Below are positions 8,253-62,502 of a DNA stretch of 64,000 nucleotides, one piece after another. The notes under the pieces are model-generated. The model did not search any database and was not told where the DNA came from. It was given only the letters and a program-made list of their open reading frames with translations. Source of the stretch: an uncultured delta proteobacterium (GTDB lineage: Bacteria; Desulfobacterota; Binatia; UBA9968); NCBI GenBank assembly GCA_963728565.1, contig CAVSLC010000010.1, positions 1 through 64,000 on the forward strand, given 5' to 3'. The first letter of the stretch is position 1; every line of letters starts with the position of its first letter. The translations under genes and the position numbers were made by a program.

Positions 8253-8302
8253 TGTGCCGCATATGGCACATCGCCATCGATCGATGTCCCGAACTTACGA
8301 CA
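8253..8302. promoter_or_regulatory. Tandem TGT-N12-ACA palindromes (candidate bEBP upstream activator sequences)
   Basis: TGTGCCGCATATGGCACA (8253-8270) and TGTCCCGAACTTACGACA (8285-8302), 32 bp apart, 68-100 bp upstream of a sigma54 site. Confidence 0.65.
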
Positions 8303-8351
8303 AATCCTGCCGTTCGGAACAACAGCCGTGCCCGTACGAATCACAAGCTTG

Positions 8352-8367
8352 AGGCATATAGTTTGCT
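8352..8367 (+). promoter_or_regulatory. sigma54 -24/-12 promoter
   Basis: AGGCATATAGTTTGCT = GG-N10-GC. Confidence 0.65.
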
Positions 8368-8382
8368 GTTAGGTGTTAGTCA

Positions 8383-8571
8383 ATGAATGCAAGCGGTCCA
8401 ATCTGTGAGCATTGTGGTGAATTGTACGAAGGCAGAGCTTATCGTGTGACGAGCGAAGAGGATGGCATCCTCTTGCTGGACATGATTGTCTGTCATTCGT
8501 GTTCTATTGAGGCGCGTAGGTTAGGCCTCGATACCAGAAAACACGACATTCGTCACATCGCTTTCAACTAG
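8383..8571 (+). CDS. Small CxxC...CxxC zinc-binding protein (62 aa)
   Basis: CEHCG ... CHSC; lies just downstream of a sigma54 motif. Confidence 0.65.
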   Translation: MNASGPICEHCGELYEGRAYRVTSEEDGILLLDMIVCHSCSIEARRLGLDTRKHDIRHIAFN

Positions 8572-8637
8572 TTTTACTTTTGAGCTCCTATTCAGATAAA
8601 CCCCTAATCGTCAGAGCGGATTAGGAGATGGTTTCTC

Positions 8638-9804
8638 TTGCCGTTCATTATGCCTATGAGCAAACCAAGGACCTTGTCGCGTAATAAAATGAAGCAAACT
8701 GTGGCGTTAAACGCTGCGGAGTATCCGGACAAGGTCAAGGACCTAAGAGCTGGACTGATCGAAGCAGGTACTGCGATTGAATTCTTGCCTTATCCCGCGG
8801 CGCTCTGGAGCTTAGATCGCCATTCATGTTTTTTTAACGACGATGCCCGCGAGTTGTTGGGTTTTTGCGAACATGACTTCAAGCAGGATGCGGCGCTTTG
8901 GTTGGAGCGTATTCATCCCGAAGACCGTAAGGAGTTTTTGCGCGCGTGGCAGAGTCTGCAGGCGGGCGAAACCAGAGTTTCCTCGCGCTACCGGTTCCAA
9001 CCCAAAAACCGAAATCAGGTGCTTCGGTTAAGAGAGGCTTCTTTTCTTTATACGAGCAGCGGAGCGGAAAAGCCCACTGTTTGGACGGTTTACCTCGAAG
9101 AGCTGGCCTCGGAGAGCTTGTTTCGCGGCACCGGCCAAGTCCGCAACTTTGTGCGCGGCTTGACCCACGAGATGGGTAATAATCTTCAGGCGATCCGCGG
9201 CGAGCTGGACATCCTTCGATTTTCTCATGCAATTCCGAAAGACGGCGCGGAGACAATTTATCGGGGAATAAACCAAGTTCGAAGGTTAGTCCACGAGATC
9301 GAGGAGTATCTCTTTCCGTCATCAGTCGAGCCTAAGACGGAGGATCCGGCGTCCGTGTTAGCCGAAGTCATTCAGAGCCGCGAAAAAGAGATGGCAGCGC
9401 ACGGGATTCGCACCGGGATAAAGCTCAAGCAGTCTCTTCCTAAGGTGCCGCTGGACTTACACTTCGGCAGAGCTCTCACCAACGTCATTGATTTTTCGCA
9501 AGCGCTTCTTTCCAAAGGCGGCGAACTTAATATCGAAGCCGGCGTGTGCCGGCAGAACGGGGAAAACTACATCGAGTTGAACATCGTTAGCTCGTCGGAT
9601 ACGTCACTGCAGGTGGAGGAAGGCGACGTATTTCGACCCTTTGCTAATGTTAATGGCCATCGCGCCGGCCTCAGTATGGCGGTGGCGCAACAGATTCTGA
9701 AGCGCCATTTTGGGAAGATCGTGTTTCGCAAAGAACAATCGAATCGCGGCGTATTCTCTCTGTTGATCCGTGTGCCCAACACTGCGCTCCCTGGTAAGAA
9801 TTAG
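8638..9804 (+). CDS. PAS + HisKA protein with a degenerate HATPase domain
   Basis: PAS_3-like WLERIHPEDR; H-box THEMGNNLQAIRG; N/G1/G2 boxes are degenerate. Confidence 0.8.
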   Translation: MPFIMPMSKPRTLSRNKMKQTVALNAAEYPDKVKDLRAGLIEAGTAIEFLPYPAALWSLDRHSCFFNDDARELLGFCEHDFKQDAALWLERIHPEDRKEFLRAWQSLQAGETRVSSRYRFQPKNRNQVLRLREASFLYTSSGAEKPTVWTVYLEELASESLFRGTGQVRNFVRGLTHEMGNNLQAIRGELDILRFSHAIPKDGAETIYRGINQVRRLVHEIEEYLFPSSVEPKTEDPASVLAEVIQSREKEMAAHGIRTGIKLKQSLPKVPLDLHFGRALTNVIDFSQALLSKGGELNIEAGVCRQNGENYIELNIVSSSDTSLQVEEGDVFRPFANVNGHRAGLSMAVAQQILKRHFGKIVFRKEQSNRGVFSLLIRVPNTALPGKN

Positions 9805-9806: not shown

Positions 9807-11333
9807 ATGCCATTAGCAGAAATCGACAAATCTCGAACTGCCGGGTGGGCAGCTGGCTCGGGCAAGTCGCTGGCCGGCAACTCACCAGTCCAGCCAAGCA
9901 GCGCCATCAGCTCTTTGATTCCCAACGTGCTGGTCGTTGACGATGATGCGACGATCCGCAGTCAGCTGGTTCGTCTGTATAGTCATAGCGGATATACGGT
10001 GGTGCCGGTCTCCTCGGCTGAGGAAGCGCTGACACAGCTTGCGCAAGGCAATATTGATTTCGTTATAACCGACATCAAGCTGCCCGGGTTGAGCGGCATT
10101 GACCTGATCGCCAACATGCAAGAGAACTTTCCCGATGTGCCGGTGATTGCGATTACCGGGTTTAAAGACATCGATACCGCGGTAAACGTGCTGAAGCATG
10201 GCGCGGCCGATTTTGTGGTCAAGCCGTTCGATCTGGGCACGGTACAGGAATCGACGCGTTTAGCTCTGGAGAAGACCCGGGTCTACATGGAGATTCGCCA
10301 TCTGCGTCGGGGTCTTAAGAACGGCTCTGAGTTTGGCGGCATGCTCAGCAAAACGGCCGAGATGCATCGGATGTTCGAAATCATCCGCATGGTAGCGCCC
10401 ACCGAGATGACGGTCTCCATCGAAGGAGAAACCGGCACCGGTAAGGAGTTAGTGGCCAGCGCGGTTCATTATCATAGCGGGCGGCGCGACAAACCGTTTG
10501 TCACGATTAACTGCGCCGGCTTTCCCGAATCCCTGCTCGAGAGCGAGCTTTTTGGATACGAACGCGGCGCCTTTACCGGCGCGGTACAAGCCAAAGCAGG
10601 AAAGATTGAGCTAGCCCACGGCGGCACCTTGTTTCTCGATGAGATCGAGAGCATCTCAGTGGTCATGCAGGGCAAATTGCTCCGGGTGCTGGAAGATCAG
10701 AAGGTTCAGCGGCTCGGTGGCAGCGCCGATATCCACGTTGACATGCGCGTGATCACGGCCACCAATGTGCCGCTCAAGCAGCTTGTCGCCGAAGGCAAAA
10801 TGCGCTCGGATTTTTATTATCGGGTAAATGTCATCCCGATCCACCTGATCCCGTTACAGCAGAGAAAGGTGGATATTCCCCTATTGGTTCAGGATTTTCT
10901 CCATCGCCATCCGGTGGCCGCGGGCAAGGGGATCACCTCGATTTCCAAGCAAGCGATGCGTCGGCTGCTAGACTACTCCTGGCCGGGCAACATTCGCGAA
11001 CTGCAAAATGTTCTCGAGCGCGCCATCGTTCTCAACACCGGCCGAACCATCGAACATGTCGATCTGCCGGAAGTCAGCTTTGAGGCGCATCCAAGCAGCG
11101 GCGGCAACGCCTTTAACGCCCCGCTCAACCAATGGCTGCAGGAAAAAGAAAAGGAGTATCTGGCGCAAAAACTCGATGATTTCGGCGGCAACGTCGGACT
11201 CACCGCAAAGAGCTGCCGGATCGGCGTGCGCACCCTTTCTCGTAAGATGCGCGCTTACGGCCTCGATAAAAAGCTGTTCAAACAAAAAAGCGACGTTGCA
11301 AAAGCTATCCTACCCAAGACAGGCCAGGCCTGA
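9807..11333 (+). CDS. NtrC/AtoC-family sigma54-dependent response regulator (REC-AAA+-Fis HTH)
   Basis: REC VLVVDDD/ITDIKLPG/VKPF; GETGTGKE; ESELFGYERGAFTGA; GTLFLDEI; WPGNIREL; C-terminal HTH. Confidence 0.95.
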   Translation: MPLAEIDKSRTAGWAAGSGKSLAGNSPVQPSSAISSLIPNVLVVDDDATIRSQLVRLYSHSGYTVVPVSSAEEALTQLAQGNIDFVITDIKLPGLSGIDLIANMQENFPDVPVIAITGFKDIDTAVNVLKHGAADFVVKPFDLGTVQESTRLALEKTRVYMEIRHLRRGLKNGSEFGGMLSKTAEMHRMFEIIRMVAPTEMTVSIEGETGTGKELVASAVHYHSGRRDKPFVTINCAGFPESLLESELFGYERGAFTGAVQAKAGKIELAHGGTLFLDEIESISVVMQGKLLRVLEDQKVQRLGGSADIHVDMRVITATNVPLKQLVAEGKMRSDFYYRVNVIPIHLIPLQQRKVDIPLLVQDFLHRHPVAAGKGITSISKQAMRRLLDYSWPGNIRELQNVLERAIVLNTGRTIEHVDLPEVSFEAHPSSGGNAFNAPLNQWLQEKEKEYLAQKLDDFGGNVGLTAKSCRIGVRTLSRKMRAYGLDKKLFKQKSDVAKAILPKTGQA

Positions 11334-11743: not shown

Positions 11744-12604
11744 ATGACAGAACAGCAGTCGAAAGTGGCTCACCTTTTAAGAAAAAACGAACGAGATGTT
11801 TTACAGCAGTGGTTGTCGTACCAGATCTCCGCGACAACAATGCGAGCCGATTTGATCAAGGAGAGCGATTTGCGCGAGGAATCGCGTCGCTTTCTGCAAC
11901 TCTTTACCGCGGTTATGCAACAGAACGGGGATGACGAAAATGCCGGCTCCTGGAAATCGGTCAAAGACATGCTCGGCGAAATATCGCGCAGCCGGGTTGC
12001 CCAGGGTTTCAGTCCGTCTGAAACCGCCACGTTCGTTTTTTCGCTCAAGCAGCCGATCTTCGATATGTTGCGGCGCGAGATACGCGACGTTGAAGAACTG
12101 TGCCGCGAGATCTGGGCGACCACGGCTCTGCTCGACAAGCTCGGACTGTACACCACGGAAGCCTACCTGCAGAGCCGCGAGTCGATCATCTCGCGCCAGC
12201 AGCAAGAATTGATGGAGCTATCCACTCCGGTGGTCCAACTCTGGGACAATGTCCTCGCGCTGCCACTAATCGGTACGCTCGACAGCGAACGCACTCAAGT
12301 GGTGATGGAGAACTTGCTCGAGAAAGTGGTCGAAACCGGCGCCTCCATAGCGATCATCGATATCACAGGCGTTCCCACGGTGGACACGCTGGTTGCGCAA
12401 CATCTGTTAAAGACCGTGGCCGCCGCTCGGCTCATGGGAGCCGATTGCATCATCAGCGGCATTCGTCCGCAGATCGCTCAAACCATCGTTCACCTGGGCA
12501 TCAACCTAGCCGATATCATCACTAAAGCGACCTTAGCCGATGCATTCGCCATTGCCCTGCAGCGAACTGGAGCCAAGGTGACGCGCCTGAGCGGCAAACA
12601 GTGA
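11744..12604 (+). CDS. rsbR: Stressosome sensor RsbR (N-terminal RsbRD_N-like domain + STAS)
   Basis: ELSTPVVQLWD..LPLIGTLDSERT..IIDITGVPTVDTLVAQHL..ISGIRPQIAQTIVHLG. Confidence 0.93.
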   Translation: MTEQQSKVAHLLRKNERDVLQQWLSYQISATTMRADLIKESDLREESRRFLQLFTAVMQQNGDDENAGSWKSVKDMLGEISRSRVAQGFSPSETATFVFSLKQPIFDMLRREIRDVEELCREIWATTALLDKLGLYTTEAYLQSRESIISRQQQELMELSTPVVQLWDNVLALPLIGTLDSERTQVVMENLLEKVVETGASIAIIDITGVPTVDTLVAQHLLKTVAAARLMGADCIISGIRPQIAQTIVHLGINLADIITKATLADAFAIALQRTGAKVTRLSGKQ

Positions 12605-12609
12605 GGTGA

Positions 12610-13002
12610 TTGATGGAACGGATTCCAATCCTGAAAATGGGCGGCTTTCTACTCGTGACTATTCAGGTGGACATGCACGATCGCTTGGCAATGACGCTTC
12701 AAGAGGATTTGACCGAGCGTATCGTCAAAGACCACGCGCACGGCGTGTTGCTTGATATTTCCTCGTTGGAAATCGTCGATTCGTTTATCGGCCGTATGAT
12801 CGGCCACATTGCCGGCGTCTCCCGCGTGCTCGATGCCAAAACCGTGGTGGTGGGAATGAGACCTGCCGTCGCCATTACGCTGGTAGAGTTGGGCATGACG
12901 CTCGATGGAGTGAGCACGGCATTGAATGTCGATACCGGTATGGCGATGTTGAACGCCTCGCTGGAAGAGAGGGCACAACTTAATGGTGGTTCTCAAAGAT
13001 GA
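12610..13002 (+). CDS. rsbS: Stressosome scaffold RsbS (STAS)
   Basis: IPILK..DISSLEIVDSF..VVGMRPAVAITLVELG. Confidence 0.93.
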   Translation: MMERIPILKMGGFLLVTIQVDMHDRLAMTLQEDLTERIVKDHAHGVLLDISSLEIVDSFIGRMIGHIAGVSRVLDAKTVVVGMRPAVAITLVELGMTLDGVSTALNVDTGMAMLNASLEERAQLNGGSQR

Positions 13003-13393
13003 GACTGCTTCAATTCGGAGTTCTGACGACATCGTCAAGGTACGCCGGATTGTCCGAGAGTGGGCGGTATCGCTGGGGTTCAGCTTAGTGGATCAGACCA
13101 AGGTTGTCACCGCAGCCAGCGAGTTGGCGCGTAATGTCATCGATTACGGTGGCGGTGGCGACTTCCGGATCGAGGCGCTCAACAATGATGCCCGGCGCGG
13201 GCTGCGGCTGACGTTTTCCGATGAGGGACCGGGTATTGTTGATCTGGAACAGGCAATGAAGGACGGGTATACCACCGGCGGCGGATTGGGTCTCGGGCTC
13301 GGCGGCGCCAAGCGGTTGGTAAACGAGTTCCTGATCGATTCGAAACCGGGGCGAGGCACTACTGTGGTGATTGTCCGCTGGAAGAATCTATGA
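12983..13393 (+). CDS. rsbT: Ser/Thr kinase RsbT
   Basis: DIVKVR..GFSLVDQTKVVTAASELARN..DEGPGI..DGYTTGGGLGLGL. Confidence 0.93.
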   Translation: MVVLKDETASIRSSDDIVKVRRIVREWAVSLGFSLVDQTKVVTAASELARNVIDYGGGGDFRIEALNNDARRGLRLTFSDEGPGIVDLEQAMKDGYTTGGGLGLGLGGAKRLVNEFLIDSKPGRGTTVVIVRWKNL

Positions 13394-14418
13394 TCCCTGT
13401 TTGGGAAAGGCAAAAGACTTTCGAAATAAGTGAACCAAGCCACGTCGCCGAGGCGCGGCGCTTTACCAGGGAGTTGGCCGAAGACGCGGGGTTTAACGAA
13501 TCTCAAGCCGGCGGCGTCGCGCTCGTTACCACGGAATTGGCAACCAACCTGCTGAAGCACGCCAGCAGCGGTGAGATCGTCGTCCGACCCATCGTTGAAC
13601 GGGGCATCGCGGGGGTGGAACTATTAGCTCTCGACAGAGGCTCGGGAATCGGGAATGTTGCTGAATCTTTGCGCGATGGCTATTCGACTGCGGGGAGTGC
13701 AGGCACGGGTCTTGGCGCCATCGCGCGGCTGGCTGCCGAATTCGACATTCAAACTCAGCCGGGTAAGGGTACCGCCGTGATGGCCCGGCTCTGGGGTGGC
13801 AAGATTCACGAGGCGTCTGAAGATCACATTGCGATCGGGGCGATTTGTAAGCCGATGCCCGGCGAGACGCGTTGCGGTGATGGATGGGGCTGCGAGCTCC
13901 TCGCAGATCGGTGCATTTTGGTGCTGGTCGACGGCCTGGGCCACGGAACGGCTGCTGCGGCCGCAGCCGAACTCGCCATTGCCAGCGTGCGCCAGCACCG
14001 CGCCAAAGGTCCGGCGGCAATCGTTCAATACGCTCACGACGCGCTACGCGCCACGCGCGGCGCGGCTCTCGCCGTGGCGGAGGTCGATTCGGCTCAGCAA
14101 TCGCTGCGTTTTTGCGGCATAGGAAACATCTCCGCCACTATCATTTCGGGAGACAGCCTGCGCCACCTGGTTTCTTACAACGGCACTGCCGGTCATGAAG
14201 CGCGCAAGATTGTCGAGTTCACCTATCCGTGGAGCGCAAACGCGCTCTTGATCATGCATTCTGACGGACTGATGACGCGCTGGAATCTGCAGGCCTATCC
14301 TGGGCTGCTTAAGCGTCATCCTAGCCTTATCGCCGGTGTCCTTTATCGTGATTTTGTCCGCGGCCGCGATGACGTCACTGTCCTAACCGCCAAATGCCCT
14401 GGTGTGAGTACTGAGTAG
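13390..14418 (+). CDS. RsbT-like HATPase fused to a SpoIIE/PP2C phosphatase (RsbX-like)
   Basis: TELATNLLKHA, DRGSGI, GTGLGAI, then CGDGW, VDGLGHG, HSDGL, RDDVTV. Confidence 0.9.
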   Translation: MIPVWERQKTFEISEPSHVAEARRFTRELAEDAGFNESQAGGVALVTTELATNLLKHASSGEIVVRPIVERGIAGVELLALDRGSGIGNVAESLRDGYSTAGSAGTGLGAIARLAAEFDIQTQPGKGTAVMARLWGGKIHEASEDHIAIGAICKPMPGETRCGDGWGCELLADRCILVLVDGLGHGTAAAAAAELAIASVRQHRAKGPAAIVQYAHDALRATRGAALAVAEVDSAQQSLRFCGIGNISATIISGDSLRHLVSYNGTAGHEARKIVEFTYPWSANALLIMHSDGLMTRWNLQAYPGLLKRHPSLIAGVLYRDFVRGRDDVTVLTAKCPGVSTE

Positions 14419-14552
14419 ATCAGCCAAAAGCTGGGCAATGGATCAGCCGCGATTCCGGCGGATAAATGTTTGAACACAAAGATGTGTTTACTTGAGGTCT
14501 TGTTTAGGATTTGCGCTGAGAGCCGCATCAGAACGACAAACCAGGACCGCCT

Positions 14553-16787
14553 ATGAGTTATTCGATCACCCATGTTAGCATCGACTATGAGCACGATGTC
14601 GTCTTAGCGCGCCAACGGGCGCGCGAGATCGCCGCATTGCTTGGCTTCGATAATCAAGATCAGACGCGCGTTGCCACGGCAGTCTCCGAGCTGGCGCGCA
14701 ACGCTTTTGTTTATGCCGGCCGTGGCAGGGTGGATTTCGAGATTGAAGGCCGTACGGTGCCGCAGCTTTTAGTTATCCGGATTGGCGACAACGGTCCCGG
14801 TATCGCAAATCTTCACGAAATTCTGGAAGGGCGTTATGTGTCGCGCACCGGAATGGGGATTGGGCTGATTGGCGCCCGGCGGCTGGTCGATCAATGCGAG
14901 ATCCACAGCGATCCCAAACAAGGAACCAAGATCGCTCTCCGAAAAATTATGCCGCGTCATGCGCCGCTGGTCACAACCGCGTCTCTGCGCAGTTTGGTCG
15001 ATCACTTGGCGCAGCGGCGGCCGCAGGGTCCGATGGAGGAAGTCCAACAGCAAAATCGGGAGCTGGTGCGCGCTTTAGCAGAGTTGCGAGAGCGGCAAGA
15101 TGAGTTGGCGCGGATCAATCGGGAACTTGAAGACACAAACCGCGGCGTGGTGGCGCTTTATGCCGAGTTAGATGAAAAGGCCAGTCACTTGCGTCGCGCG
15201 GACGAAATGAAGTCACGCTTTCTTTCCAACATGAGTCACGAATTTCGCACGCCGCTCAATTCGATTTTGGCATTATCGGGATTGTTGCTGGAGCGCGCCG
15301 ACGGAGAATTAACGAGCGAGCAAGACAAACAAGTTGGCTTCATCCGAAAGGGCGCGGAGACTCTGCTGGAATTGGTAAACGATCTATTGGATTTGGCAAG
15401 AATCGAGGCCGGCAAGGTCGAGGTCCAGCCGGTCGACTTCGAAGTGTCCAATCTTTTCAGCGCGCTCCGCGGCATGCTGCGTCCGCTCCTGGTGGCTCAG
15501 AGCGTTGGCCTGGTTTTCGAAGATCCCCGGGAGATTCCTTGTTTATACTCTGATGAAGGCAAGCTGTCGCAAATCTTGCGCAATTTTATTTCAAACGCGC
15601 TGAAGTTTACGGAACAGGGTTTGATCTCGGTTGCAGCAACTTTTAATAAAACTGATCAGACGGTGACATTTGCGGTCTCGGATACCGGTATGGGTATTCC
15701 GGCTGAAGACCAGTCGAAGATCTTTGAGGAATTTGTCCAGCTCGAAAATCCGGCACAACGAAAAATCAAGGGCACGGGTCTCGGCCTTCCCCTGTGCCGC
15801 AAACTGGCCACACTGCTGAATGGAAAAATCGATTTGGTGAGTCAGATAGGGATCGGTTCAACGTTTTCAGTGACGATTCCGCTTTATCATTCGCAGGTGC
15901 CGGAGAGCCGGACAGTTGGGGAAGCGAAACCGGCGGCTTTATGGGAAATCGATGAAACACGCATTCCCGTTTTGGTTCTGGAGGACGCTCCGGAGACTCG
16001 CCTCCTCTATGAAAAGTTTCTTCGTCAATCTGCGTTTCAACAGATTTCGGCGAACAACCTGGGCGAGGCCCGCCGAATACTACAGCAGGTCCGGCCGCGC
16101 GCCATTGTTATGGATATTCTACTACGCGGTGAAGACTCGTGGACCTGGTTGGCCGAGCTCAAGGCGGAGAGCGCGACGCGGGACATCCCGGTGCTGGTTA
16201 TCACCAGTGTCGACGACGAACGCAAGGGCCTATCCCTGGGAGCCGATGCTTATTGCCTGAAGCCGATCGGGCGCGAAACCTTGATCAGGCAGCTTCAGGC
16301 TCTTACCGGTCTAAATGCTGAAATCTCGGGAGCAGAGCAACCCCTTCAAAACGGCAACGCGCAGCCCTGCGTATTGATCATCGACGACGAACCGGTGGAC
16401 CGCTACATACTGGTGCGCTTACTCGAGCAACAGCCATGCATCATTGAGCAGGCGGCAAGCGGGTTGGAAGGTCTAAAAATCTTGCAAGAAATCAAACCGG
16501 ATCTTATTTTTCTGGATCTCAATATGCCGGGTCTCTCCGGCTACGATGTGTTGAATAAGATCAAGGCCCATCCGTCTACGCGCAATATTCCGGTGGCGGT
16601 GGTGACATCGGCCGAGCTTGACGGGCATCAGCGTCAAGAACTCAAAGAAAAGGCCTATGCGCTAATAAATAAGGTTGACCTCTCGGCCAAAGCCGTTGAT
16701 GATTTGCTTGCGGCAGCGATGGCGCCGGCGGCCCTGCAGGCACGATTGGTCGAGTCGCACAATTGCGAGGCTAGCGGCAGCGGCTGA
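14553..16787 (+). CDS. Hybrid histidine kinase: RsbT-like N-domain, HisKA-HATPase, two REC domains
   Basis: DQTRVATAVSELARN; NMSHEFRTPLN; NFISNALKFT; GTGLGL; REC domains IVMDI and IFLDL. Confidence 0.92.
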   Translation: MSYSITHVSIDYEHDVVLARQRAREIAALLGFDNQDQTRVATAVSELARNAFVYAGRGRVDFEIEGRTVPQLLVIRIGDNGPGIANLHEILEGRYVSRTGMGIGLIGARRLVDQCEIHSDPKQGTKIALRKIMPRHAPLVTTASLRSLVDHLAQRRPQGPMEEVQQQNRELVRALAELRERQDELARINRELEDTNRGVVALYAELDEKASHLRRADEMKSRFLSNMSHEFRTPLNSILALSGLLLERADGELTSEQDKQVGFIRKGAETLLELVNDLLDLARIEAGKVEVQPVDFEVSNLFSALRGMLRPLLVAQSVGLVFEDPREIPCLYSDEGKLSQILRNFISNALKFTEQGLISVAATFNKTDQTVTFAVSDTGMGIPAEDQSKIFEEFVQLENPAQRKIKGTGLGLPLCRKLATLLNGKIDLVSQIGIGSTFSVTIPLYHSQVPESRTVGEAKPAALWEIDETRIPVLVLEDAPETRLLYEKFLRQSAFQQISANNLGEARRILQQVRPRAIVMDILLRGEDSWTWLAELKAESATRDIPVLVITSVDDERKGLSLGADAYCLKPIGRETLIRQLQALTGLNAEISGAEQPLQNGNAQPCVLIIDDEPVDRYILVRLLEQQPCIIEQAASGLEGLKILQEIKPDLIFLDLNMPGLSGYDVLNKIKAHPSTRNIPVAVVTSAELDGHQRQELKEKAYALINKVDLSAKAVDDLLAAAMAPAALQARLVESHNCEASGSG

Positions 16788-16834: not shown

Positions 16835-19800
16835 ATGACTGAACCGTTGGCCCATACTATTGTCAATGTAGACGACGATGATGCCGGCCGTTATGCCAAG
16901 AGCCGAATCCTTCGCCGCGCCGGTTATCGGGTGTTCGAAGCTTCAACCGGCGCGGACGGTCTTGGTTTGGTGGCCGAGGTAAAACCGCAGCTGCTCCTTC
17001 TGGAAGTGAACCTGCCGGATATGAGCGGGCTGGAGGTTTGCCGCATGCTCAAAGCCAACCCTTCGACGTCCGACACTCTCGTTTTGCAGATTTCAGCTTC
17101 GCAGACTACGGCAGAAGACCGTGTGTTTGGCTTGGAAGGCGAAGCGGATGCTTACCTGACTGATCCGGTGCAAGCAAACGAGCTGGTTGCAACCTCGCGC
17201 GCGCTGCTGCGCCTTTACCGCCGTGAACAAGAAAACCGAGAATTGCTGGCTGCCTTGCGCCGCAGCGAATCGCAGTTTCGCGCCAGCTTCGAGCTGGCCG
17301 GCGTCGGCAAGACACAAATCGACGCCTCAACGGGAAAATTCATTGGCATCAATAAATGTTTCTGTGAGCTGGTCGGTTATACCGAGTCAGAGCTGTTGGG
17401 CTTGGCGCCATCCGATCTGACTCACCCAGACGATCGCTGCCGTGAAGCCGAGTTAGTTGCCGCGTTATTGCGAGGTGAAACCGAGGATCTGGTCGAAGAA
17501 AAACGTCTGGTGCGCAAAGACGGGCGAATTCTCTGGGTCTCGATCAACGTCAAATTGATCCGCGATGCCACGGGCGCGCCGGAGCGGACAATCTCTGTCG
17601 TCGTCGATATCAGCGAGGGCAAGCGCGCTGAAGAGCGAGCGCGCCGGCAGAACGAACGACTGGCCTTGCTTGCGCAAGTCTCGGAGCGACTGCTTACCGC
17701 GGATGATCCCGCTGTGATGATCAGAGAAGTTTTCGAGACCGTGCGGCAGCACCTCGCATTGGATACCTACTTCAATTACCGGGTGGACAGCTCCGGTTCC
17801 GCCCTCGTGCTGGAGTCCCGCGGCGATGCAGACTCTGACGCGTTGCCCGCCTCACAGCCACTCCATATCAGCAAATCGCTCCATGAGGTTCCCGCGCATT
17901 TACGCCAGGAGGTCATCCGGAAAGCACTCAAGAAGGTCGATGATCAACAGGCGAAGTCTGCCCAGTCGCGGGGCTTTTCGGCCTATGCCGGTCATCCTCT
18001 GCTGCTTGCCGAGCGCTTGATCGGCACACTATGTTTCGCGAGCAAGAGGCGCGACGATTTCGACAACGACGAAATCGACTTCATGCGGACGATTTGCCAT
18101 TACGTGGCGATGGCGCAAGAGCGTTTGCGCCTGCTGGCGGAATCGCGCCAGCAGGTGGAGCGGCTTGAGCAAAGTGAAAGCAGGCTCCGGCTGGCGGTGG
18201 ACGGCGCCGGCATGGGGATCTGGGATGTGGATTTGCGAACCGACACTTTAGTCTGGAATCGCGAGCTGTACTCACTGTTGGGATACGTTTCGGATGCCGG
18301 ACCCGTCACCCGCCAGATGTGGCGCTCGCGTATTTACCCTGAGGATTTCACCGGTGTCGCGCAAGCGATGGAGCGGGCCAAGTCGTCTCGATCCCTCTAC
18401 TGTCTGGAACACCGGATCATACGCGCCGACAATGGCGAGATTCGCTGGCTGGCGCCGTTCGGCCGGTTTCTCTACGATGACGCGGGCACGGCGGTTCGGT
18501 TTCTTGGCATCGTGTTTGACTTCACCGAGCGGAAACGCGCTGAGGATGCCTTCCATGAGACTGCTGAGCGGCTTCGTTTAGCGCAGGTCAGCGCTCATCT
18601 TGGTATCTTCGACTGGAACGCGCGAACCAACGAGTTAGCATGGACGCCCGAGCAAGAGATGGTCTATGGAGTGCCCGCCCGGGGCATGACCCGTTACGAG
18701 CACTGGCAAAAGCTCGTTCACCCGGAGGACCTTGCGCGCGTGGAGGCTGAGCGGGCTAAGGCCATTGGACAGCGGCAGCCGTTCACTTTGGAATATCGCA
18801 TTCTGCATCCTTCCGGAAAGACTCACTGGATAGCTTCCAAAGGCCAGGGTTGGTACGACGCCGCCGGCCAGTTAACCCGCGTTCTTGGCGTCAACATCGA
18901 CATCACTGAGACCAAGCGAGCCGAAGAAGAGCTGCGCCACCAAAAGCAACTGCTTGAGACAATTACCGATAATGCGCCATCGATGTTGTTTATGACCGAT
19001 CCGATGGGACGCGTAACCTTTGCCAATCCGGCGGCACGGCATTTGACCGGTTATGATGAGCAAGAGCTGATCGGCCAGATTCTGCATGAAAAAATTCATC
19101 ACAGCCGGCCCGACGGCTCGCCTTACCCGATCAGCGATTGTCGACTTCATAATGTGCTGCCGTTCGAGGAACGAATTACAGGTCACGAAGAGATGTTCGT
19201 GCGCAAGGACGGAACCTTTTTCTCTGTGCGTTGCGCCGCCAGCCCGATAATTCAAGACGGCATGCCCGTCGGCACCGTGATCGAAGGCCAGGACATCACC
19301 AAAGAGAAGAAAGCGGAGCGCGCGCTACGGGACAGTGAAGAACGGCTGCGCATGCTGTCCAACTATGTGCCCGTGTTCGTCTGGGCTTGCCGCGCCGACG
19401 GGTGGTGCTATTCGCTCAATGATCGCTGGTACGAGTATACCGGTCTTAAGCCGGAGCAGGCGCTCGGTGTCGGTTGGTTGGACGCGCTACATCCGGAAGA
19501 TCGGGAGCAGGCGCTCTCGAAATGGGATCAGGCTGTCGCTCGCGGGGATGGTTACGAGATGGAGTTGCGTTGCCGGCGTCACGATGGCGAATATCGCTGG
19601 TTTATCGCGAAAGCTCTTCCGGTCAAGGATGCGGGCGGCCTGATTACCGACTGGTTCGGCACTAGCTTGGATATCCATGACCGTAAATCAGGGGAACAGA
19701 GTCTCGCTCATCTCGCCGCCATCGTCACCTCATCGCAGGACGCCGTCATCTCGTTCTCACGAGATTTCAAGATTGTCACGTGGAATCGGGCGGCAGAGAA

Positions 19801-51193: not shown

Positions 51194-51209
51194 TGCAACG
51201 AAGATGCCA
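51194..51209 (-). promoter_or_regulatory. sigma54 -24/-12 promoter
   Basis: TGGCATCTTCGTTGCA on the minus strand; TGT-N12-ACG at 51296-51313. Confidence 0.85.
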
Positions 51210-52768: not shown

Positions 52769-53470
52769 TCACATAGGTTGTGTAGAGTCCCGCGACATAT
52801 TAGCGATTCCGTCAAGCAACTCGCGGACCTCCTGATCGCTTGTCTGCTCAAAATCCGAATACCACGCCCCGACAGCCATGAAGGGCTCAGGGGTTGCGCC
52901 GCAAATCACCTCATCGACTTCGCCGCGCAAATCGTCGCAAGTTTCGGCAGCAGCAACAGGAACCGCAACGATGATCTTAGACGGCTGCATCTTTCGCAGC
53001 GCGGTAGCAGCGGCGCGCATCGTCGATCCGGTTGCCAGGCCGTCATCAATGAGAATCACCGTGCGGCCTTGTACACTGGGTGGCGCCCGATCTCCACGGT
53101 ACAGCCGTTCGCGGCGTTTCAACTCTTCCTCCTCGCGATGGGCTACATCGTCAATTGCCGAACTCGAAACAGGAATTCGGCTAGTGACTTCCTCATTGAG
53201 GACACGAACTCCACCTGTGGCGATCGCGCCCATGGCTAATTCTTCTTGCCCTGGGACGCCAAGCTTACGCACCGAGAAAACATCCAAGGGAGCACGAAGC
53301 GCGCGGGCAACCTCAAAAGCAACCGGCACCCCGCCACGCGGCAGCGCCAGTACCAGAACATCCGAACGATTAGCATAGGGGGCTAGTTGAGTCGCGAGCT
53401 GCTTGCCTGCCTGACGCCGATTGGCAAAAGGAATAATGATCGGTTCGCCCGATCGAGACTTCCTAAGCAC
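52769..53470 (-). CDS. Phosphoribosyltransferase-family protein (Rv0571c-like)
   Basis: [54 protein letters not shown]; GGAGG before the GTG at 53470. Confidence 0.9.
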
Positions 53471-53546: not shown

Positions 53547-53562
53547 CGCAAAGCCGATGCCA
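53547..53562 (-). promoter_or_regulatory. sigma54 -24/-12 promoter
   Basis: TGGCATCGGCTTTGCG on the minus strand. Confidence 0.8.
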
Positions 53563-56718: not shown

Positions 56719-57024
56719 TTAGCTGCTGTAGCGCGAATAGCCATCACCTCGATCGCTCTGATCATGACCCTCAAGCTTCACCAGCTTGTTATAGAGTCCG
56801 ATGATCAACCAGGTGGGGACCCACTGTCCGATGAAGTTCCCCCACTTGCCCCGACCGCCGATCTGCATCGCCAGTGAAAGCGCCATCGCCCCGAGCGCGA
56901 CTCCTAAGAACGCGGAGGATGGTATCGCGCCGGTATATTTTTCAATCGATTTTGTAAACTGATCCTCAGTCCTGCTGGGCTGTTGCGATTGCCCCGTTCC
57001 AAAAGCTCCCTCATAATTTTCCAT
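56719..57024 (-). CDS. Conserved small membrane protein
   Basis: AAGGAGG RBS; IPSSAFL..A.GAM..SL..GNFIGQWVPT.LI.GLYNKLVKLEGHD. Confidence 0.8.
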   Translation of the reverse strand: MENYEGAFGTGQSQQPSRTEDQFTKSIEKYTGAIPSSAFLGVALGAMALSLAMQIGGRGKWGNFIGQWVPTWLIIGLYNKLVKLEGHDQSDRGDGYSRYSS

Positions 57025-57341
57025 GATAACCTCCTTCAGTTTGCTGACGGTTAGTGAATGCGGACGCGAATCTACGTTACGTGTTTTTAGCAGCCCGGGG
57101 GGTACGCTTATACGGAGAGCAAAACACGTACCAGCACTTAAAGCACAGGGCATGTCGTGAATGGCTTGAAGATTTTTCGGAACGCCTGCAAGGGCTGATC
57201 TTACGAACGAAGCAGAGCGGCGGATTTAAGTCTTAACTCTGAGACGACCAGGGTTAAATCTACAGCGTGTGGGTAATCGTGAGTTTCAGAATACGTCGAC
57301 GCCGAACCAGCCAGATGATAACACTTGCATGCGACATGCAA

Positions 57342-58778: not shown

Positions 58779-58888
58779 GTTTCCGTTTCCTCCGAGCATC
58801 TGGGTTGCATACTTCTAGAATAGGGGATGAACGGGAGCATTTCAAACGTCTTTGCCGCCGACCATTGGTGTATGAAGGATCTGAGATT

Positions 58889-61041
58889 ATGAACGAAATT
58901 ATTCGCTTGCCCGATGAATTCTACATCCTTGCGACAGCATCCGCTGCAGAGGAGTCCCGAGTCCTAAAGATGGGCGAGAGCTTTGGAATTTTCGACCGCT
59001 ACGGCGATATTCTTCAGTATGGCTTAGGCGAACAAGGAATCTATCACGAGGGAACACGGTTCCTCTCTTATCTTGAACTTCGCATGGGAAACATCCGCCC
59101 TTTTCTACTGAGCTCGATGATCAAAGAAGACAACATTCTCTTCACCGTCGATTCGACCAACCCCGATGTTTACGTCGACGGCACGATCGCGCTGCGCCGC
59201 GGTGATGTGCATCTATATCGCTCAAAATTCATCTGGCAGGCAGTCTGTTATGAACGGCTGCAACTGGTCAACTATAGCCTGTTGCCCATCGAAATTTCTT
59301 TTGCGATTCGCTTCGACGCCGATTTTGCCGACATTTTCGAAGTGCGCGGCGTCAAAAGAGAAAAGCGAGGGACGCGCCTGGTGGATGAGACTCGACAAGG
59401 ATCGCGCGATGCTGAGCTATCTTGGCCTGGACGACATCGTTCGCCAAACAATCATCGAGTTTTCTCCAGCCCCGGAGAAGCTGGCGCCTGGTGAAGCGAC
59501 CTTTCACAGAATTCTCGATCCTAAAAAACCCGAGGCGTTTTTAGTCTCGTACGCGTGCAAATCGAAACGCTCTGTTCCGGTTCGCCGCCCCGTAGAGCTG
59601 GCGCTGAAACAAGCCGAACAAGCGCTAGCTGCCTACAAAGCGGAGGAGTGCCAAGTCCGCACGTCGAATCATGAGTTCAACGGCTGGCTCGACCGCTCCT
59701 ACGCCGATATTCATATGATGATTACCGACGGCCAAGATCTTTATCCGTACGCGGGAGTGCCGTGGTTCAGCACGGTGTTCGGCCGGGATGGGATTATTAC
59801 GTCGTGGGAGCTTTTATGGATTTTCCCCCGGGTCGCGCGCGGCGTGCTGCGTTACTTGGCGGAGACGCAAGCGACGGAAGTTATCTCCGAGCGCGACGCC
59901 GAACCCGGAAAGATTCTGCACGAGATGCGCCTGGGAGAAATGGCCAGCTTGGGTGAAATTCCTTTTGACCGCTACTACGGCAGCACCGACAGTACGCCTT
60001 TGTTCGTTATGCTGGCGGGTGCTTACGTCACTCGCACGAACGATGTTGAATTCGCTCGCTGGATCTGGCCGCACGTGAGGCGCGCGCTGCACTGGATTGA
60101 AGAGTACGGTGACGTCGACGGCGATGGCTTTGTCGAAACGTTGCGCCGCTCATCGCATGGGTTGGTGCAGCAAGGCTGGAAAGATTCGTGGGACTCCGTT
60201 TTTCATCAAGACGGAACTCTCACCGAGGCGCCACTGGCGCTGTGTGAGGTTCAGGGTTACGTGTACGCCGCCAAACTTGCGGCGGCAGGAATCGCGACGC
60301 TCCTCGGCCATAGCGACGAAGCCGTGAGGCTTGTCAGTGAGGCCGAGCGACTCAAAGAGCAATTTCAACCAAGTGTTTTGGTGTGACGAGCTTTCGATCT
60401 ACGCGTTGGCGCTCGATCAAGCAAAGCGTCCTTGCAAGGTGCGAGCATCGAACGCCGGCCATTGCCTGTTTGCCGGTATTGCTACGGATGAGTATGCGTT
60501 GCGTACTGCAAGCACGTTGATGAGCGAAGATTTTTTTTCCGGCTGGGGAATCCGGACATTATCGACCAACGAAGTGCGTTACAACCCGATGTCCTACCAT
60601 AATGGATCGATTTGGCCGCACGATAATGCCGTGATCGCAGCCGGCTTTGCTCGTTATGGTTTGAAAGAACCGATATCCACGGTGATCACCGGACTGTTCG
60701 AGGCCAGCCTCTACTTTGAAATGCATCGTTTGCCCGAGCTTTTCTGCGGTTTTCCGAGACGCGAAGGTGAAGGGCCGACCCTGTATCCGGTTGCCTGCGC
60801 GCCGCAAGCGTGGGCGGCCGGCTCGGTCTTTTTAATGCTGCAAGCGTGTTTGGGACTCTCGGTCCATGCGAGCGATGCGAAGATTTACTTCGACTCGCCT
60901 GTGCTGCCCGAGTGCATCAATGAGATATACTTGAAGAACCTGCGGGTCGATTCGTCACTACTCGACTTAGTAGTCGATCGTTCCTTTCAAGGCATTGGAA
61001 TTGAGCGCCGCCAGGGCGACGCCAGCATTGTGATCAGTTGA
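58889..61041 (+). CDS. Amylo-alpha-1,6-glucosidase / GDE-like (alpha/alpha)6 glycoside hydrolase (frameshifts ~59385, ~60370)
   Basis: ADFADIFEVRG, AGVPWFSTVFGRD, EPGKILHE, YYGSTDSTPLF, QGWKDS, YHNGSIWPHD, RLPELFCG, ACAPQAW. Confidence 0.9.
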
Positions 61042-62061
61042 AGCTTTGATCACGCGGCGGTAGACGCTGAGGTAATCTTGCGCCATACGAGAGGCGCTAA
61101 AACGTTCTTCGAAAACCCGGCGACAGCGCCGGCGGTCAAAAGCCGGAATCTTACGAAGCGCCTGAAGGGCGCCTTCGATGTCGTCGACGATGTAACCTGT
61201 GATGCCCTCCTGGATCAACTCCGGTACCGAGCCACGCCGAAACGCAATAATCGGAGTGCCGCATGCCATCGCTTCGATAATCACCAGGCCGAAAGGTTCC
61301 GGCCAATCGATCGGAAACAGCAAGGCATAAGCGTTCGCGAGAAATTCTTTTTTGTCCTTGTCGCCGATCTCGCCGATAAATTCCGCCGACGAATTGCTCA
61401 AGATGGGTCTGATCACCTGTTCCATGTAATTACGATCGGCGGCATCGGTCTTGGCGGCAATGCGAAGTCTCATGCCCGAACGAGCGGCGATTTCGATTGC
61501 GCGATCTAGCCGTTTTTCCGGTGAGATTCGTCCAACGAACGCGAGATAATTCCCGGGTTTCTCACCGCAATCATAAAGCTCCAGAGGCAAGCCATGATAG
61601 ATCGTCTGTTGCCAGTTGGCGCGGGGCAGAGGTGTGCGTTGCGCATTCGAGATCGATACAACTGGCATTTCGCTGAATTTTTTGTACACGGGCATCAGGT
61701 CGGCAAGATCAAGCCGGCCATGCAGGGTGGTCACGTGCGGAACCGAGTATCGACGCGCTAGCGGGAAATGAAGGTAATCGGTATGAAAGTGGATGATGTC
61801 AAAACGGGACGCTCTCTCGAAAACCTCTTCGAGCATAACATAGTGATGAGCAAGCGGGTCGAACACATTGTCGAGACGCAGGGCTCGCTTGCGCGCCGCT
61901 ATGAGTTGCGCCGCAGTGACCGAATCGCCGCTGGCGAAGAGCGTGACCTCGTGTCCCTGCGCCACCAACTCCTCGGTCAGGTAAGAAACGATCCGTTCAG
62001 TGCCGCCATAAGTTCGCGGCGGCACACTTTCATAAAGAGGCGAGACCTGCGCGATTTTCAT
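60967..62061 (-). CDS. GT4-family glycosyltransferase
   Basis: MKIAQVSPLYESVPP..YGGTER, TTLHGRLD, GRISPEK, WPEPFGLVIIEAMACGTP. Confidence 0.93.
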   Translation of the reverse strand: MKIAQVSPLYESVPPRTYGGTERIVSYLTEELVAQGHEVTLFASGDSVTAAQLIAARKRALRLDNVFDPLAHHYVMLEEVFERASRFDIIHFHTDYLHFPLARRYSVPHVTTLHGRLDLADLMPVYKKFSEMPVVSISNAQRTPLPRANWQQTIYHGLPLELYDCGEKPGNYLAFVGRISPEKRLDRAIEIAARSGMRLRIAAKTDAADRNYMEQVIRPILSNSSAEFIGEIGDKDKKEFLANAYALLFPIDWPEPFGLVIIEAMACGTPIIAFRRGSVPELIQEGITGYIVDDIEGALQALRKIPAFDRRRCRRVFEERFSASRMAQDYLSVYRRVIKASTDHNAGVALAALNSNALKGTIDY

Positions 62062-62164
62062 TCGGGATCCTTAAAAAAAGCGCCGACAACGATGCTAGGG
62101 GCAGATTTGATTGCGGCGGAAACTTTAAATCAAGTAAATCGAAGACGCGGATAATTTGTTATTA

Positions 62165-62180
62165 CGCAATGGCGATGCCA
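62165..62180 (-). promoter_or_regulatory. sigma54 -24/-12 promoter
   Basis: TGGCATCGCCATTGCG on the minus strand; TGT-N12-ACG at 62297-62314. Confidence 0.8.
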
Positions 62181-62502
62181 TTTAGAATGCCGAAACTGAA
62201 GAGATGAAAAAAGCAGCAGAGTCGATGCTTAAAGTCTTCAGCAGCAACGATAGTTGCTATCGCATTGCGCGGAACGGAACATTATAACTCCGCTCTTGTA
62301 TCTATTTTGAGACGAAGGCGGTCTTGTGAAGCGAGGCCACATGTCAGAGAATTCAACGCGCCGCTAGGACAGGGAACGGTAAACTTTCGTAAATCAGATG
62401 ACCATCCGGTCTTTTTCTCGGCGACCAAAATGTTAAGCTCAATCCTCTAGCCGGATCGCGTACGGATCCGCGCAGCCGAACTATCTGCGAAGGAGAGGGG
62501 CC

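Follow-up and report, generated by a model that had tools for sequence, protein, structure and literature searches.

A candidate sigma-54-dependent stress regulon beside a stressosome module in an uncultured Binatia bacterium

Textbook general stress responses of bacteria are run by dedicated sigma-70-family factors (SigB, RpoS, and EcfG), and sigma-54 promoters are silent without an activated ATPase. Genes for CsbD, YihY, DksA-like, PRC-barrel, and similar proteins are typical of SigB, RpoS, or EcfG regulons. A 64,000-nucleotide (nt) stretch of DNA from an uncultured delta proteobacterium (GTDB lineage Bacteria; Desulfobacterota; Binatia; UBA9968) raises the question of whether such genes can be controlled by sigma-54 and, if so, through which activator and which input. 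This stretch, hereafter ‘the window’, comprises positions 1 to 64,000 of contig CAVSLC010000010.1 in assembly GCA_963728565.1. An original prediction, made from the letters of the window and their open reading frames (ORFs), had described it as a candidate sigma-54-driven general stress regulon, in which a stressosome signals through hybrid kinases to an NtrC-type bacterial enhancer-binding protein (bEBP) and RpoN, possibly replacing SigB. Here, we report that sequence comparison supports the sites in the window as genuine, conserved sigma-54-type promoters ahead of general-stress-type genes. The explanation that we favor as a whole, at a probability of roughly 0.6, is a large sigma-54 sigmulon that includes stress genes, of which one subset would be served through dyad sites by the bEBP encoded at 9807 and its twin, and other parts by other bEBPs.

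The source assembly (G000; 4.53 Mb in 28 contigs, 80.55% complete, 5.84% contamination) is a metagenome-assembled genome (MAG) of an uncultured soil bacterium, and the window is G000:C10:1-64000. Relatives’ genomes carry G-numbers, genera g-numbers, and loci L-numbers; the source genus is g1, G008 belongs to g2, and G010 to g4. Same-genus genomes are syntenic with the window at 71–91% DNA identity; the more divergent ones compared were G002, G003, G006, and G007, and other genera were represented by G008 and G010. Chance expectations in the window were taken from 100 dinucleotide shuffles, and protein families of window genes were assigned with Pfam profiles.

Sigma-54-type promoters in the window and across the genome

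Sixteen GG-N10-GC motifs had been claimed for the window, each upstream of an inferred start codon and pointing toward it. All are present, upstream, and correctly oriented, the minus-strand coordinates having been given one base too low. Nine match TGGCA-N6-TTGC exactly (24539+, 25528+, 36314-, 39080+, 40154+, 45262-, 51195-, 53548-, and 62166-), against about 0.5 expected in the original estimate and a mean of 0.81 (maximum 3) in the shuffled windows, none of which (0/100) reached nine. Allowing one mismatch recovers the other seven (8352+, 22695+, 24065+, 38810-, 44906-, 45311+, and 46546+), and in all 16 the GG and GC doublets lie exactly 10 nt apart within a TGGCA-N6-TTGC-like context. 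When the 200 nt downstream of each site were inspected, every site was found upstream of a plausible start and pointing to it, at a distance of 25–104 nt for the ten modelled sites; we agree that 24539, 39080, 40154, and 53548 (53547 in the prediction) require the later start supported by a ribosome-binding site. The whole genome holds 114 exact matches in 4.53 Mb, which gives 1.6 expected per window versus the nine present (Poisson P(>=9) = 4.8e-5). The described prevalence of TGGCAT was likewise found, in eight of the nine exact window sites and genome-wide, where the base after TGGCA is T in 69 of the 114 matches, C in 26, A in 13, and G in six. Two further conserved sites, 51480+ and 57119-, were added to the class. 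The 18 putative promoters and the genes that they precede are as follows.

8352-8366, plus strand: sigma-54 promoter AGGCATATAGTTTGC (conserved as TGGCATAYTNCTTGC in G002, G003, G007, G008, and L017) of an operon for a Zn-ribbon protein (8383-8571, 62 amino acids [aa]), a PAS histidine kinase (8638-9804), and the bEBP (9807-11333)
22695-22709, plus strand: sigma-54 promoter CGGCATATTTTTTGC of YihY/BrkB (22786-24051), letter-identical in G002, G006, and G007, where YihY protein/coding identity is only 76–89%
24065-24079, plus strand: sigma-54-like promoter TGGCATGTCCTGTGC (TGGCATGTCGTGTGC in G006) of a 49-aa membrane protein
24539-24553, plus strand: sigma-54 promoter of an outer-membrane beta-barrel protein
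25528-25542, plus strand: sigma-54 promoter of a lipoprotein (25587-25811) and an M48 peptidase (25818-26510), conserved in G002 and G007
36314-36328, minus strand: sigma-54 promoter of an ASRT-family protein (35917-36288), kept in G005 and G006, absent from G002 and G007
38810-38824, minus strand: sigma-54 promoter of a DksA/TraR-type protein (38173-38676), divergent from 39080, present also in G005 and G006; G010 has a canonical counterpart
39080-39094, plus strand: sigma-54 promoter of a YflT-like protein of 253 aa (start near 39145; 30% identity with a DUF2382/YflT protein on C2), conserved in G002, G003, G005, G007, and G010
40154-40168, plus strand: sigma-54 promoter of a secreted 257-aa protein, kept in G003, G005, G006, and G008
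44906-44920, minus strand: sigma-54 promoter of CsbD (about 44667-44861), of a type that also precedes CsbD in G007, G041, G008, G022, and G052
45262-45276, minus strand: sigma-54 promoter of a 54-aa zinc-finger-like protein, divergent from 45311, conserved in G005 and G006
45311-45325, plus strand: sigma-54 promoter of two genes (45496-45864 and 45952-46398) for weakly YtxH-like and DUF3618-like proteins, kept in G005, G006, G002, and G007
46546-46560, plus strand: sigma-54 promoter of a 94-aa protein (46625-46909), followed by a PLD-family gene (47104-48687)
51195-51209, minus strand: sigma-54 promoter of a PRC-barrel protein (50392-51153), divergent from 51480, kept in G003, G005, and G006
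51480-51494, plus strand (added): sigma-54 promoter TGGAATCATTTTTGC of a single-domain REC protein (51509-51886), kept in 5/5 relatives
53548-53562, minus strand: sigma-54 promoter of a phosphoribosyltransferase-family protein (about 52772-53470), kept in G006
57119-57133, minus strand (added): sigma-54 promoter TGGTACGTGTTTTGC of a 101-aa protein (56722-57024), present in G006 and G003
62166-62180, minus strand: sigma-54 promoter of a GT4 glycosyltransferase (60967-62061), kept in G006

Conservation in orthologous upstream regions, which the original prediction had named as a check, extends to all 18 sites, each of which persists in one or more relatives whose coding DNA is no more than about 85% identical. 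In the aligned regions the -24/-12 block forms an island of identity amid diverged sequence, and several such elements are retained ahead of orthologous genes in the other genera, G008 and G010. The ASRT and DksA-like promoters are retained only in G005 and G006 within the compared members of the genus. The DksA/TraR-type gene is re-wired within the genus: in G002 (L096), G007 (L097), and G003 (L099) it has no sigma-54 promoter and stands directly after a gene with an Fe/Mn superoxide-dismutase-like C-terminus. From these comparisons the promoters are very probably real and RpoN-dependent.

The target families stood in part. Pfam recovers CsbD, BrkB/YihY, the DksA/TraR zinc finger, and PRC, and adds OMP_b-brl, ASRT, PRTase, and GT4; the ‘lmo0937-like’ protein has no match, and the ‘YqjD-like’ one has only sub-threshold YtxH/MT0933 similarity.

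The pattern is wider than the window. With a position weight matrix (PWM) threshold of at least 12 bits, 115 matches are non-coding versus 100 within the 86% of the genome that is coding, which indicates about 100 real sigma-54 promoters; these genome-wide counts are rough lower bounds, since the crude gene model placed several true window sites ‘inside’ genes. The comparison of the island with its background by such a scan, also proposed in the prediction, shows the window to be enriched and not unique: a second island (C23:197-261 kb) has 13 PWM matches per 64 kb, compared with a genome mean of 1.6, and equals the window in density. The C23 region (G000:C23:195000-262000) contains a kinase/bEBP pair (200181-204239) and sigma-54 promoters before Hsp20 (two), DksA-BON, 3xBON, CBS-like, and Usp-like genes.

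Outside the window, 47 promoters score at least 18.4 bits, and the first genes of 40 were scanned, the seven left out being a duplicate Flp-like gene, PII, a sigma gene, and four ORFs of 50–60 aa. Stress-type first genes among the 40 encode HSP20 (two), BON (three, one fused to a DksA/TraR finger and one with three BON domains), BrkB/YihY, DUF2382/YflT, Gly-zipper_Omp, and DUF4142. Envelope, metabolism, and signalling are represented by PG_binding_1 (two), a BBP2 porin, bactofilin, HTH_17 (two), cytochrome c, SucA, SGL, NusG-like, PaaA-like, HlyD, EAL-GGDEF, HAD-HerA, DUF6298, and adh_short; the remaining 15 of the 40 have no Pfam family. Stress-type families are over-represented among the strongest promoters, and the sigma-54 pattern of stress genes is genome-wide. 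Lower-scoring promoters precede a second CsbD (family confirmed) and genes that, judged by their N-termini alone, look Usp-like, hemerythrin-like, SRPBCC-like, and DUF2267-like, and PII/glnB stands behind its own sigma-54 promoter at C3:52006.

Several further observations concern individual genes of the window. Only about 14 nt separate the GC of the 51480 promoter (51480-51511) from the ATG of the REC gene at 51509, with the same spacing in 5/5 relatives, so that a nearly leaderless mRNA is predicted. The YihY/BrkB protein (22786-24051) is extended at its C-terminus by about 120 aa, which match Rrf2-type regulators below threshold (23 bits versus a cut-off of 30). Genes for a HAD phosphatase, a GH13 enzyme, and an MGH1-like hydrolase neighbor the GT4 gene, and a compatible-solute-like cluster is among the targets in the window. 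ORFs 59166-60386 and 60331-61041 overlap and match different parts of the MGH1-like glycoside hydrolase model, which could reflect a frameshift, an assembly error, or a split gene. Other window genes encode a REC-BON protein, TamA/TamB, topoisomerase IB, and a RecQ-like helicase.

A tandem dyad and twin activators

The most immediate candidate for an activator is encoded in the window itself, behind the first of the listed promoters.

9807-11333, plus strand: NtrC-type response-regulator bEBP (Pfam Response_reg, 1.3e-27; Sigma54_activat, 1.4e-66; HTH_8, 1e-5)

Its REC-AAA+-HTH_8 arrangement by Pfam and the GAFTGA motif seen in the alignment agree with the GAFTGA activator that had been claimed. 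When orthologous upstream regions of p46546 (two sites, 5/5 genomes), p40154, and the bEBP operon were aligned, a dyad of the type TGTSYC-N6-GRSACA (TGT-N12-ACA) surfaced, which occurs in tandem copies about 31–32 nt apart, roughly 60–140 nt upstream of the -24 element. Its occurrences in the window are as follows.

8253-8302, plus strand: tandem dyads TGTGCCGCATATGGCACA (8253-8270, -99) and TGTCCCGAACTTACGACA (8285-8302, -67), 32 nt apart, upstream of 8352; top score of the tandem-dyad scan, with a related dyad at the orthologous place in G003 and L017
24427-24444 and 24459-24476, upstream of 24539: tandem pair, 32 nt apart, with counterparts at unchanged offsets in G002, G006, and G007
40017-40034 and 40048-40065, upstream of 40154: tandem pair, the dyad conserved in G006, G002, and G007
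46425-46442 and 46467-46484, upstream of 46546: highest single-dyad score, the promoter and both dyads kept in 5/5 aligned genomes
44994-45011 (-91) and 44962-44979 (-59), upstream of CsbD (44906): single or weaker dyads, positionally held in relatives
51296-51313 (-104), common to 51195 and 51480: single or weaker dyad, kept in G005 and G006
57229-57246, upstream of 57119: single or weaker dyad, held at -113 in G000 and G003 and at -110 in G006
-92 and -124, upstream of 25528: weak dyads, holding their position in relatives
Intergenic region of 38810/39080: weak tandem dyads, conserved
Upstream of 22695 (YihY): strong dyads in G002 and G007
62297-62314 (-134), upstream of 62166: strong single dyad CGTCTCAAAATAGATACA in the source genome

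Across 123 sigma-54 upstream regions and 1102 intergenic controls, TGT-N12-ACA occurs in 14/123 versus 28/1102 (p = 2e-5), and the dyad PWM, which was trained on conserved sites, partly from the window, reaches at least 12 bits in 13/123 versus 6/1102, although eight of those 13 had been used in its training. Pairs spaced 29–34 nt apart were found in 8/123 versus 1/1102 (p = 7e-8), and in 4/115 (p = 3.5e-4) of the promoters outside the training set; spacings of 18–23, 40–45, and 50–55 nt gave one, one, and no occurrences. The strict tandem pairs belong to 8352, 40154, 24539, two promoters on C18, C10:130912, C4:52769, and C19:26535.

The two C18 promoters adjoin a twin of the bEBP (C18:41523-43082), in which residues 139–482, comprising the AAA+ and HTH parts, are identical. 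In these parts two of 344 codons differ, both synonymously, compared with 76 of 104 codons in the receiver part, 41 of them non-synonymously, a mosaic suggestive of a domain swap or of recent gene conversion. Both copies are also present in G005; G007 has one 9807-type match (88%) and a second match that is 47% identical. The two promoters that flank the twin are identical to each other and lead into 61-aa genes, which we take to be Flp-pilin-like from their N-terminal motif, Pfam having given no match. At all three promoters adjoining the twin bEBPs, a GTGCC half-site precedes the -24 element by about 99 nt. The flanks of the twin form an inverted duplication (G000:C18:40816-43654) of about 460 nt and 95% identity, each copy with the promoter TGGCATTAGAGTTGC, tandem dyads, and a 61-aa gene. 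The zinc-ribbon protein of the 9807 operon (8383-8571) has a 44%-identical paralogue at G000:C5:35196-35387, likewise directly behind a sigma-54 promoter; its Pfam likeness to Gin, the anti-sigma-G factor, is only sub-threshold, and it may be a small regulator.

Because the bEBP operon has the best tandem pair at its own promoter, and the twin with the identical AAA+/HTH part is flanked by the same pairs, we assign the dyads to this pair of activators, and we consider it reasonably probable that they are the site of both. On this basis, the dyads support a bEBP-9807 regulon covering part of the window, namely three strict-tandem promoters and roughly nine others with dyads that are weaker or present in relatives only. 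The Zn-ribbon/PAS-kinase/bEBP operon would then be autoregulated through its own dyads and sigma-54 promoter, and twins with a common DNA-binding/AAA+ part and different receivers would let two phospho-inputs converge on one regulon. Homologues of the 9807 protein with 57–88% identity occur in most genera of the family, compared with at most 49% for generic bEBPs. In G010, a 59–60% identical bEBP shares one 12-kb contig with the DksA-like gene, p39080, p40154, CsbD, and several sigma-54 motifs.

The single regulon for the island that had been proposed does not hold. The promoter set is genome-wide, the genome encodes about 18 full bEBPs, and at least three response-regulator bEBPs stand in stress contexts: 9807, C23:202893 (after an 859-aa kinase), and C10:132847. 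No dyad was found at five window promoters (24065, 36314, 45262, 45311, and 53548), and the C23 island has no tandem dyads, which presumably makes it a separate bEBP regulon. Such promoters, including the whole C23 island, would probably be served by other two-component bEBPs, and the window would be one of two dense islands in a sigmulon of about 100 promoters within the assembled 80% of the genome.

Sigma factors and the stressosome module

Of the two sigma classes at issue, sigma-54 is encoded by a single rpoN match in each of 20/20 relatives (a tally that includes the unpublished G012), so there is no sign of the second rpoN paralogue for which the prediction had suggested a search; in the source assembly itself, at 80.55% completeness, no rpoN was found. 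The assembly contains 13 sigma-70-family genes, encoding RpoD, RpoH, a 531-aa RpoD-like paralogue, a 270-aa group-2 sigma on C5, and extracytoplasmic function (ECF) types. No SigB/F/G-type sigma was found in the assembly, the best TIGR02980 score being 120 bits versus the cut-off of 234 bits; the 270-aa and 531-aa sigmas score nearest to the RpoD/RpoS models, below all curated cut-offs. The statement that the window lacks sigB, rsbV, and rsbW was correct: it contains no sigma-70-family gene, and no RsbV- or RsbW-like gene beyond the stressosome kinases. Two RsbV-like STAS proteins are encoded elsewhere, on C26 and C5. The phrase ‘replacing SigB’ can be kept as a functional analogy, given that no SigB-type sigma was found in the assembled part, with the proviso that the 270-aa and 531-aa factors exist.

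The 531-aa sigma is itself of interest here. Its gene (C10:127624-129258, gene at 127666, outside the window) follows a strong sigma-54 promoter (24.3 bits) that, together with an upstream TGT-N12-ACA dyad, is conserved in G005, G006, and G002 (protein identity 53%), and a cascade from sigma-54 to a sigma-70 paralogue therefore likely exists. The promoter divergent from it drives SucA. At G000:C5:201554-202644, a sigma-54 promoter (14.8 bits) precedes genes for an 89-aa protein, STAS-like by its N-terminus alone, and, directly after it, a 272-aa ECF-type sigma, an arrangement that suggests possible sigma-54 control of a partner-switching ECF unit.

The stressosome module comes immediately after the bEBP operon, and in it RsbR, RsbS, and RsbT are, as claimed, encoded together.

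11744-12604, plus strand: RsbR (Pfam RsbRD_N and STAS)
12610-13002, plus strand: RsbS (Pfam STAS)
12983-13393, plus strand: RsbT (Pfam HATPase_c_2)
13390-14418, plus strand: RsbT-like kinase fused to PP2C (HATPase_c_2 and SpoIIE/PP2C), with the RsbX-type phosphatase expected of a stressosome module
14553-16787, plus strand: hybrid kinase (HATPase_c_2-HisKA-HATPase_c-REC-REC)
16835-21697, plus strand: REC-PAS/GAF kinase of 1620 aa (Pfam)
21582-22436, plus strand: REC-REC protein (Pfam)

A SigB-type output (RsbU-RsbV-RsbW-SigB) was not found downstream of it. The module is syntenic in g1, being whole and contiguous in G007, partial in G003, and present also in G005. Relatives of rsbR with 57–97% identity occur in many phyla (MAGs and isolates labelled Nitrospira, Acidobacteriota, Burkholderiales, Planctomycetota, and others). 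Among 80 rsbR loci, RsbR-S-T is kept in 74, with the kinase-PP2C in 66, and with the hybrid kinase in 64. A 9807-type bEBP adjoins the locus only in L016 (a contig-end fragment) and L017, both of this lineage, and the bEBPs at L032 and L038 are unrelated (36–39% identity). A search of 41 genomes of the family gave a canonical RsbR (about 107 bits) only in g1 and in a single genome of g27. The core at 11744-16787 (loci L016-L095) has proteins 57–80% identical across very different phyla and is patchy in the family, which is consistent with the RsbR-S-T/kinase-PP2C/hybrid-kinase core being a horizontally mobile signalling cassette. In G008, a Zn-ribbon/kinase/bEBP operon with a sigma-54 promoter, plus promoters at p40154 and CsbD, occurs in a genome in which no canonical RsbR was found; the bEBP/sigma-54 wiring of stress genes in sister genera thus does not need the stressosome.

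The proposed chain from stressosome through hybrid kinases and bEBP to RpoN consequently survives in its lower part, with conserved sigma-54 promoters of which part have a putative activator site in common with the 9807 operon, whereas the stressosome step corresponds to adjacency in g1 alone. That the stressosome feeds bEBP 9807, as this adjacency might suggest, we regard as doubtful; a phosphorelay from the neighboring module may supply an additional input.

Competing explanations and known systems

A number of results weigh against the favored explanation or limit its reach. The rpoN domains (PF04552 and PF04963) were not found in the 80.55%-complete source assembly. A k-mer and exact-dyad search of 17 window upstream regions gave nothing convincing, and the best unbiased 4+4 dyad (9/123 versus 4/1102) was not significant after about 450,000 tests. 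The exact palindrome TGTGCC-N6-GGCACA was tried as a common site and rejected: it has a single genomic copy, and copies with up to three mismatches are at chance in the window (29 versus 24.6). As the dyad PWM was partly built from window sites, the scores of eight promoters are circular, the independent enrichment (4–5/115) is modest, and five window promoters have no dyad at all. The bEBP at C10:132847, one of about 18 possible binders, lies near three dyad-bearing promoters. The strict motif is absent from CsbD upstream regions in 16/16 loci of g13, g15, and g17, so the wiring covers part of the family. The label ‘general’ derives from family names and from regulons known in other bacteria. 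Finally, 24 soil RNA-library runs contained 7–11% of sampled words of 38000-47000, and four runs (X1 and X2 may be one data set) gave contigs of 97–341 nt with 95–99% identity to coding parts of several genes; these short coding fragments are silent on start sites and are no proof of transcription, and stretches that they leave uncovered carry no information.

Four other explanations were weighed. That the motifs are chance matches or non-functional relics is hardly credible: 59 of the 114 exact genome matches do fall inside crude coding calls, so the bare nine-base motif does occur by chance, but in the window each of the 16 has the correct orientation and falls either between genes or in an over-extended N-terminus, no shuffle reached the nine exact matches, and their conservation where flanks are not conserved already contradicts such a reading. 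It is also quite unlikely that the true general-stress sigma is one of the sigma-70-family factors (270 aa on C5 or 531 aa at C10:127666), with sigma-54 adding a second promoter or acting upstream; both exist, they score nearest to RpoD/RpoS models, and the longer one stands behind a conserved sigma-54 promoter, yet the stress genes have conserved -24/-12 elements at the right distance and are thereby predicted to be direct sigma-54 targets, possibly under dual control.

Two alternatives remain. In the one closest to the original prediction, a single linear pathway from the stressosome through hybrid kinases and bEBP 9807 to RpoN would run essentially all promoters and stand in for SigB. The gene order, in which the bEBP operon is immediately followed by rsbRST, the kinase-PP2C, and the hybrid kinases, with synteny in g1, fits this idea, as do the RsbT/RsbW-like HATPase_c_2 before the HisKA core of the hybrid kinase, the proposal that the Vibrio vulnificus stressosome signals into a two-component system (PMC9237108, in the portion cited here), and the lack of a SigB-type sigma in the assembly. 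We nevertheless judge it unlikely, because the five-gene core is present in 64/80 loci with a 9807-type bEBP adjacent in only two, canonical RsbR is confined to g1 and one g27 genome while the bEBP type occurs in most genera, G008 has the wiring without a canonical RsbR, a PAS kinase (8638) is already part of the bEBP operon, promoters without dyads include five in the window and the whole C23 island, and no Hpt domain to complete a relay was seen in the Pfam scan of the module. Conversely, the stress genes might be split among independent, stimulus-specific two-component bEBP regulons that the window merely clusters, with no ‘general’ response at all. The many bEBPs, the bEBP/kinase pairs within both other dense regions (C23:200181-204239 and C10:132847), the lack of a dyad common to all promoters, and the presence of classical targets (PII with a porin, Flp-like pilins, SucA, EAL-GGDEF, HlyD, and bactofilin) speak for a split, and the sigma-54 regulome of Desulfovibrio vulgaris, as summarized in the main text of PMC4641369, is made up of many small regulons, including one with the label general stress response. 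Set against this are the tandem dyad at no fewer than eight promoters, and in weaker form at several more, ahead of functionally unrelated stress genes, which exceeds a single-stimulus operon pair, and the over-representation of stress-type families among the strongest promoters; we hold the split to be possible and rather doubtful.

The wiring is taxonomically limited. Within 330 nt upstream of CsbD, the strict motif occurs in 8/28 family loci, compared with about 0.1 expected (g1 4/4, g12 3/6, g2 1/2, g13 0/11, g15 0/4, and g17 0/1), and CsbD itself was not found in two other families of the order (0/32 genomes). In g1 and some sister genera, sequence and conservation place many SigB/RpoS/EcfG-type genes behind -24/-12 promoters, including those for CsbD, Hsp20, BON/OsmY-like, YihY, DksA-like, PRC-barrel, and YflT-like proteins, small membrane proteins, envelope proteins, and compatible-solute enzymes, and such genes would need RpoN and an ATP-dependent activator.

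Among known systems, the SigB/stressosome system of Bacillus subtilis and Listeria resembles the window in that RsbR (with an N-terminal sensor and STAS), RsbS, RsbT, and a PP2C are encoded together, and in its target families, CsbD, YflT-like, and small membrane proteins being SigB-dependent there. The window differs in that it has no RsbU/RsbV/RsbW/SigB output, its promoters are of the -24/-12 rather than the SigB type and would depend on an activator with ATPase activity, its PP2C forms one protein with an RsbT-like kinase domain, and hybrid histidine kinases come after the stressosome. The NtrC/NifA enhancer architecture has the same REC-AAA+-HTH_8 protein with GAFTGA, tandem dyads upstream (such as the tandem NtrC sites at glnA), and an autoregulated regulator operon; here, however, the dyad is TGT-N12-ACA, whereas the NifA site is TGT-N10-ACA, the targets are stress rather than nitrogen genes, and two paralogues have an identical output half. 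The EcfG/PhyR and RpoS regulons of Alphaproteobacteria and Gammaproteobacteria include CsbD, BON/OsmY, PRC-barrel, DksA-like, Hsp20, glycine-zipper lipoproteins, and compatible-solute genes, as here, but under dedicated sigma-70-family factors controlled by partner switching or proteolysis, whereas with sigma-54 the control point would be bEBP phosphorylation.

The stressosome locus of V. vulnificus, in the parts of the sources cited here, goes with two-component genes in place of a sigma factor (PMC9237108, PMC10014275), and its RsbT is suggested to act on a downstream sensor kinase (PMC9237108); its RsbR is a globin-coupled sensor, that of the window has the RsbRD_N domain, and these parts describe no bEBP, sigma-54 promoter set, or CsbD-type regulon, whereas the final regulator in the window may be an NtrC-type bEBP. 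D. vulgaris Hildenborough shares with the source genome its many two-component bEBPs and stress responses among their regulons; according to the main text of PMC4641369, the DVU3305 regulon, labelled ‘General stress response, transmembrane transport’, comprises two adjacent operons, compared with the dozens of promoters, classic stress-protein families, and adjacent stressosome described here. That main text does not contain ‘CsbD’ or ‘RsbR’, and the main text of PMC12316311 does not contain ‘CsbD’, ‘general stress’, or ‘stressosome’, while the supplementary tables of either could list such genes. A literature search, which did not extend to supplementary tables, turned up no report that connects stressosomes to sigma-54 or bEBPs, and none that places a CsbD-type general stress regulon under sigma-54. 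The present system is a variant of two known kinds, the sigma-54/bEBP regulon and the stressosome with a two-component output.

In its most far-reaching form, which we consider speculative and somewhat improbable, the general stress response of this soil lineage has moved onto sigma-54: one dyad specificity, twin activators, a stressosome-fed phosphorelay, and a second kinase input would control dozens of classic stress genes (CsbD, YihY, PRC-barrel, DksA-like, YflT-like, envelope, and compatible-solute genes) and a second RpoD-like sigma in an ATP-gated, all-or-none manner with no dedicated stress sigma-70. Placing CsbD/Hsp20/BON-type genes behind sigma-54 would give a tightly off, switch-like stress programme under two-component signalling. 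Stressosomes without SigB, which are widespread, would gain a testable candidate for a transcriptional endpoint. CsbD, wired to sigma-54 in some genera of one family and not in others, would be a natural case of regulon rewiring, and the twin activators, with one common output half and two input halves, would show how a regulon could gain a second input.

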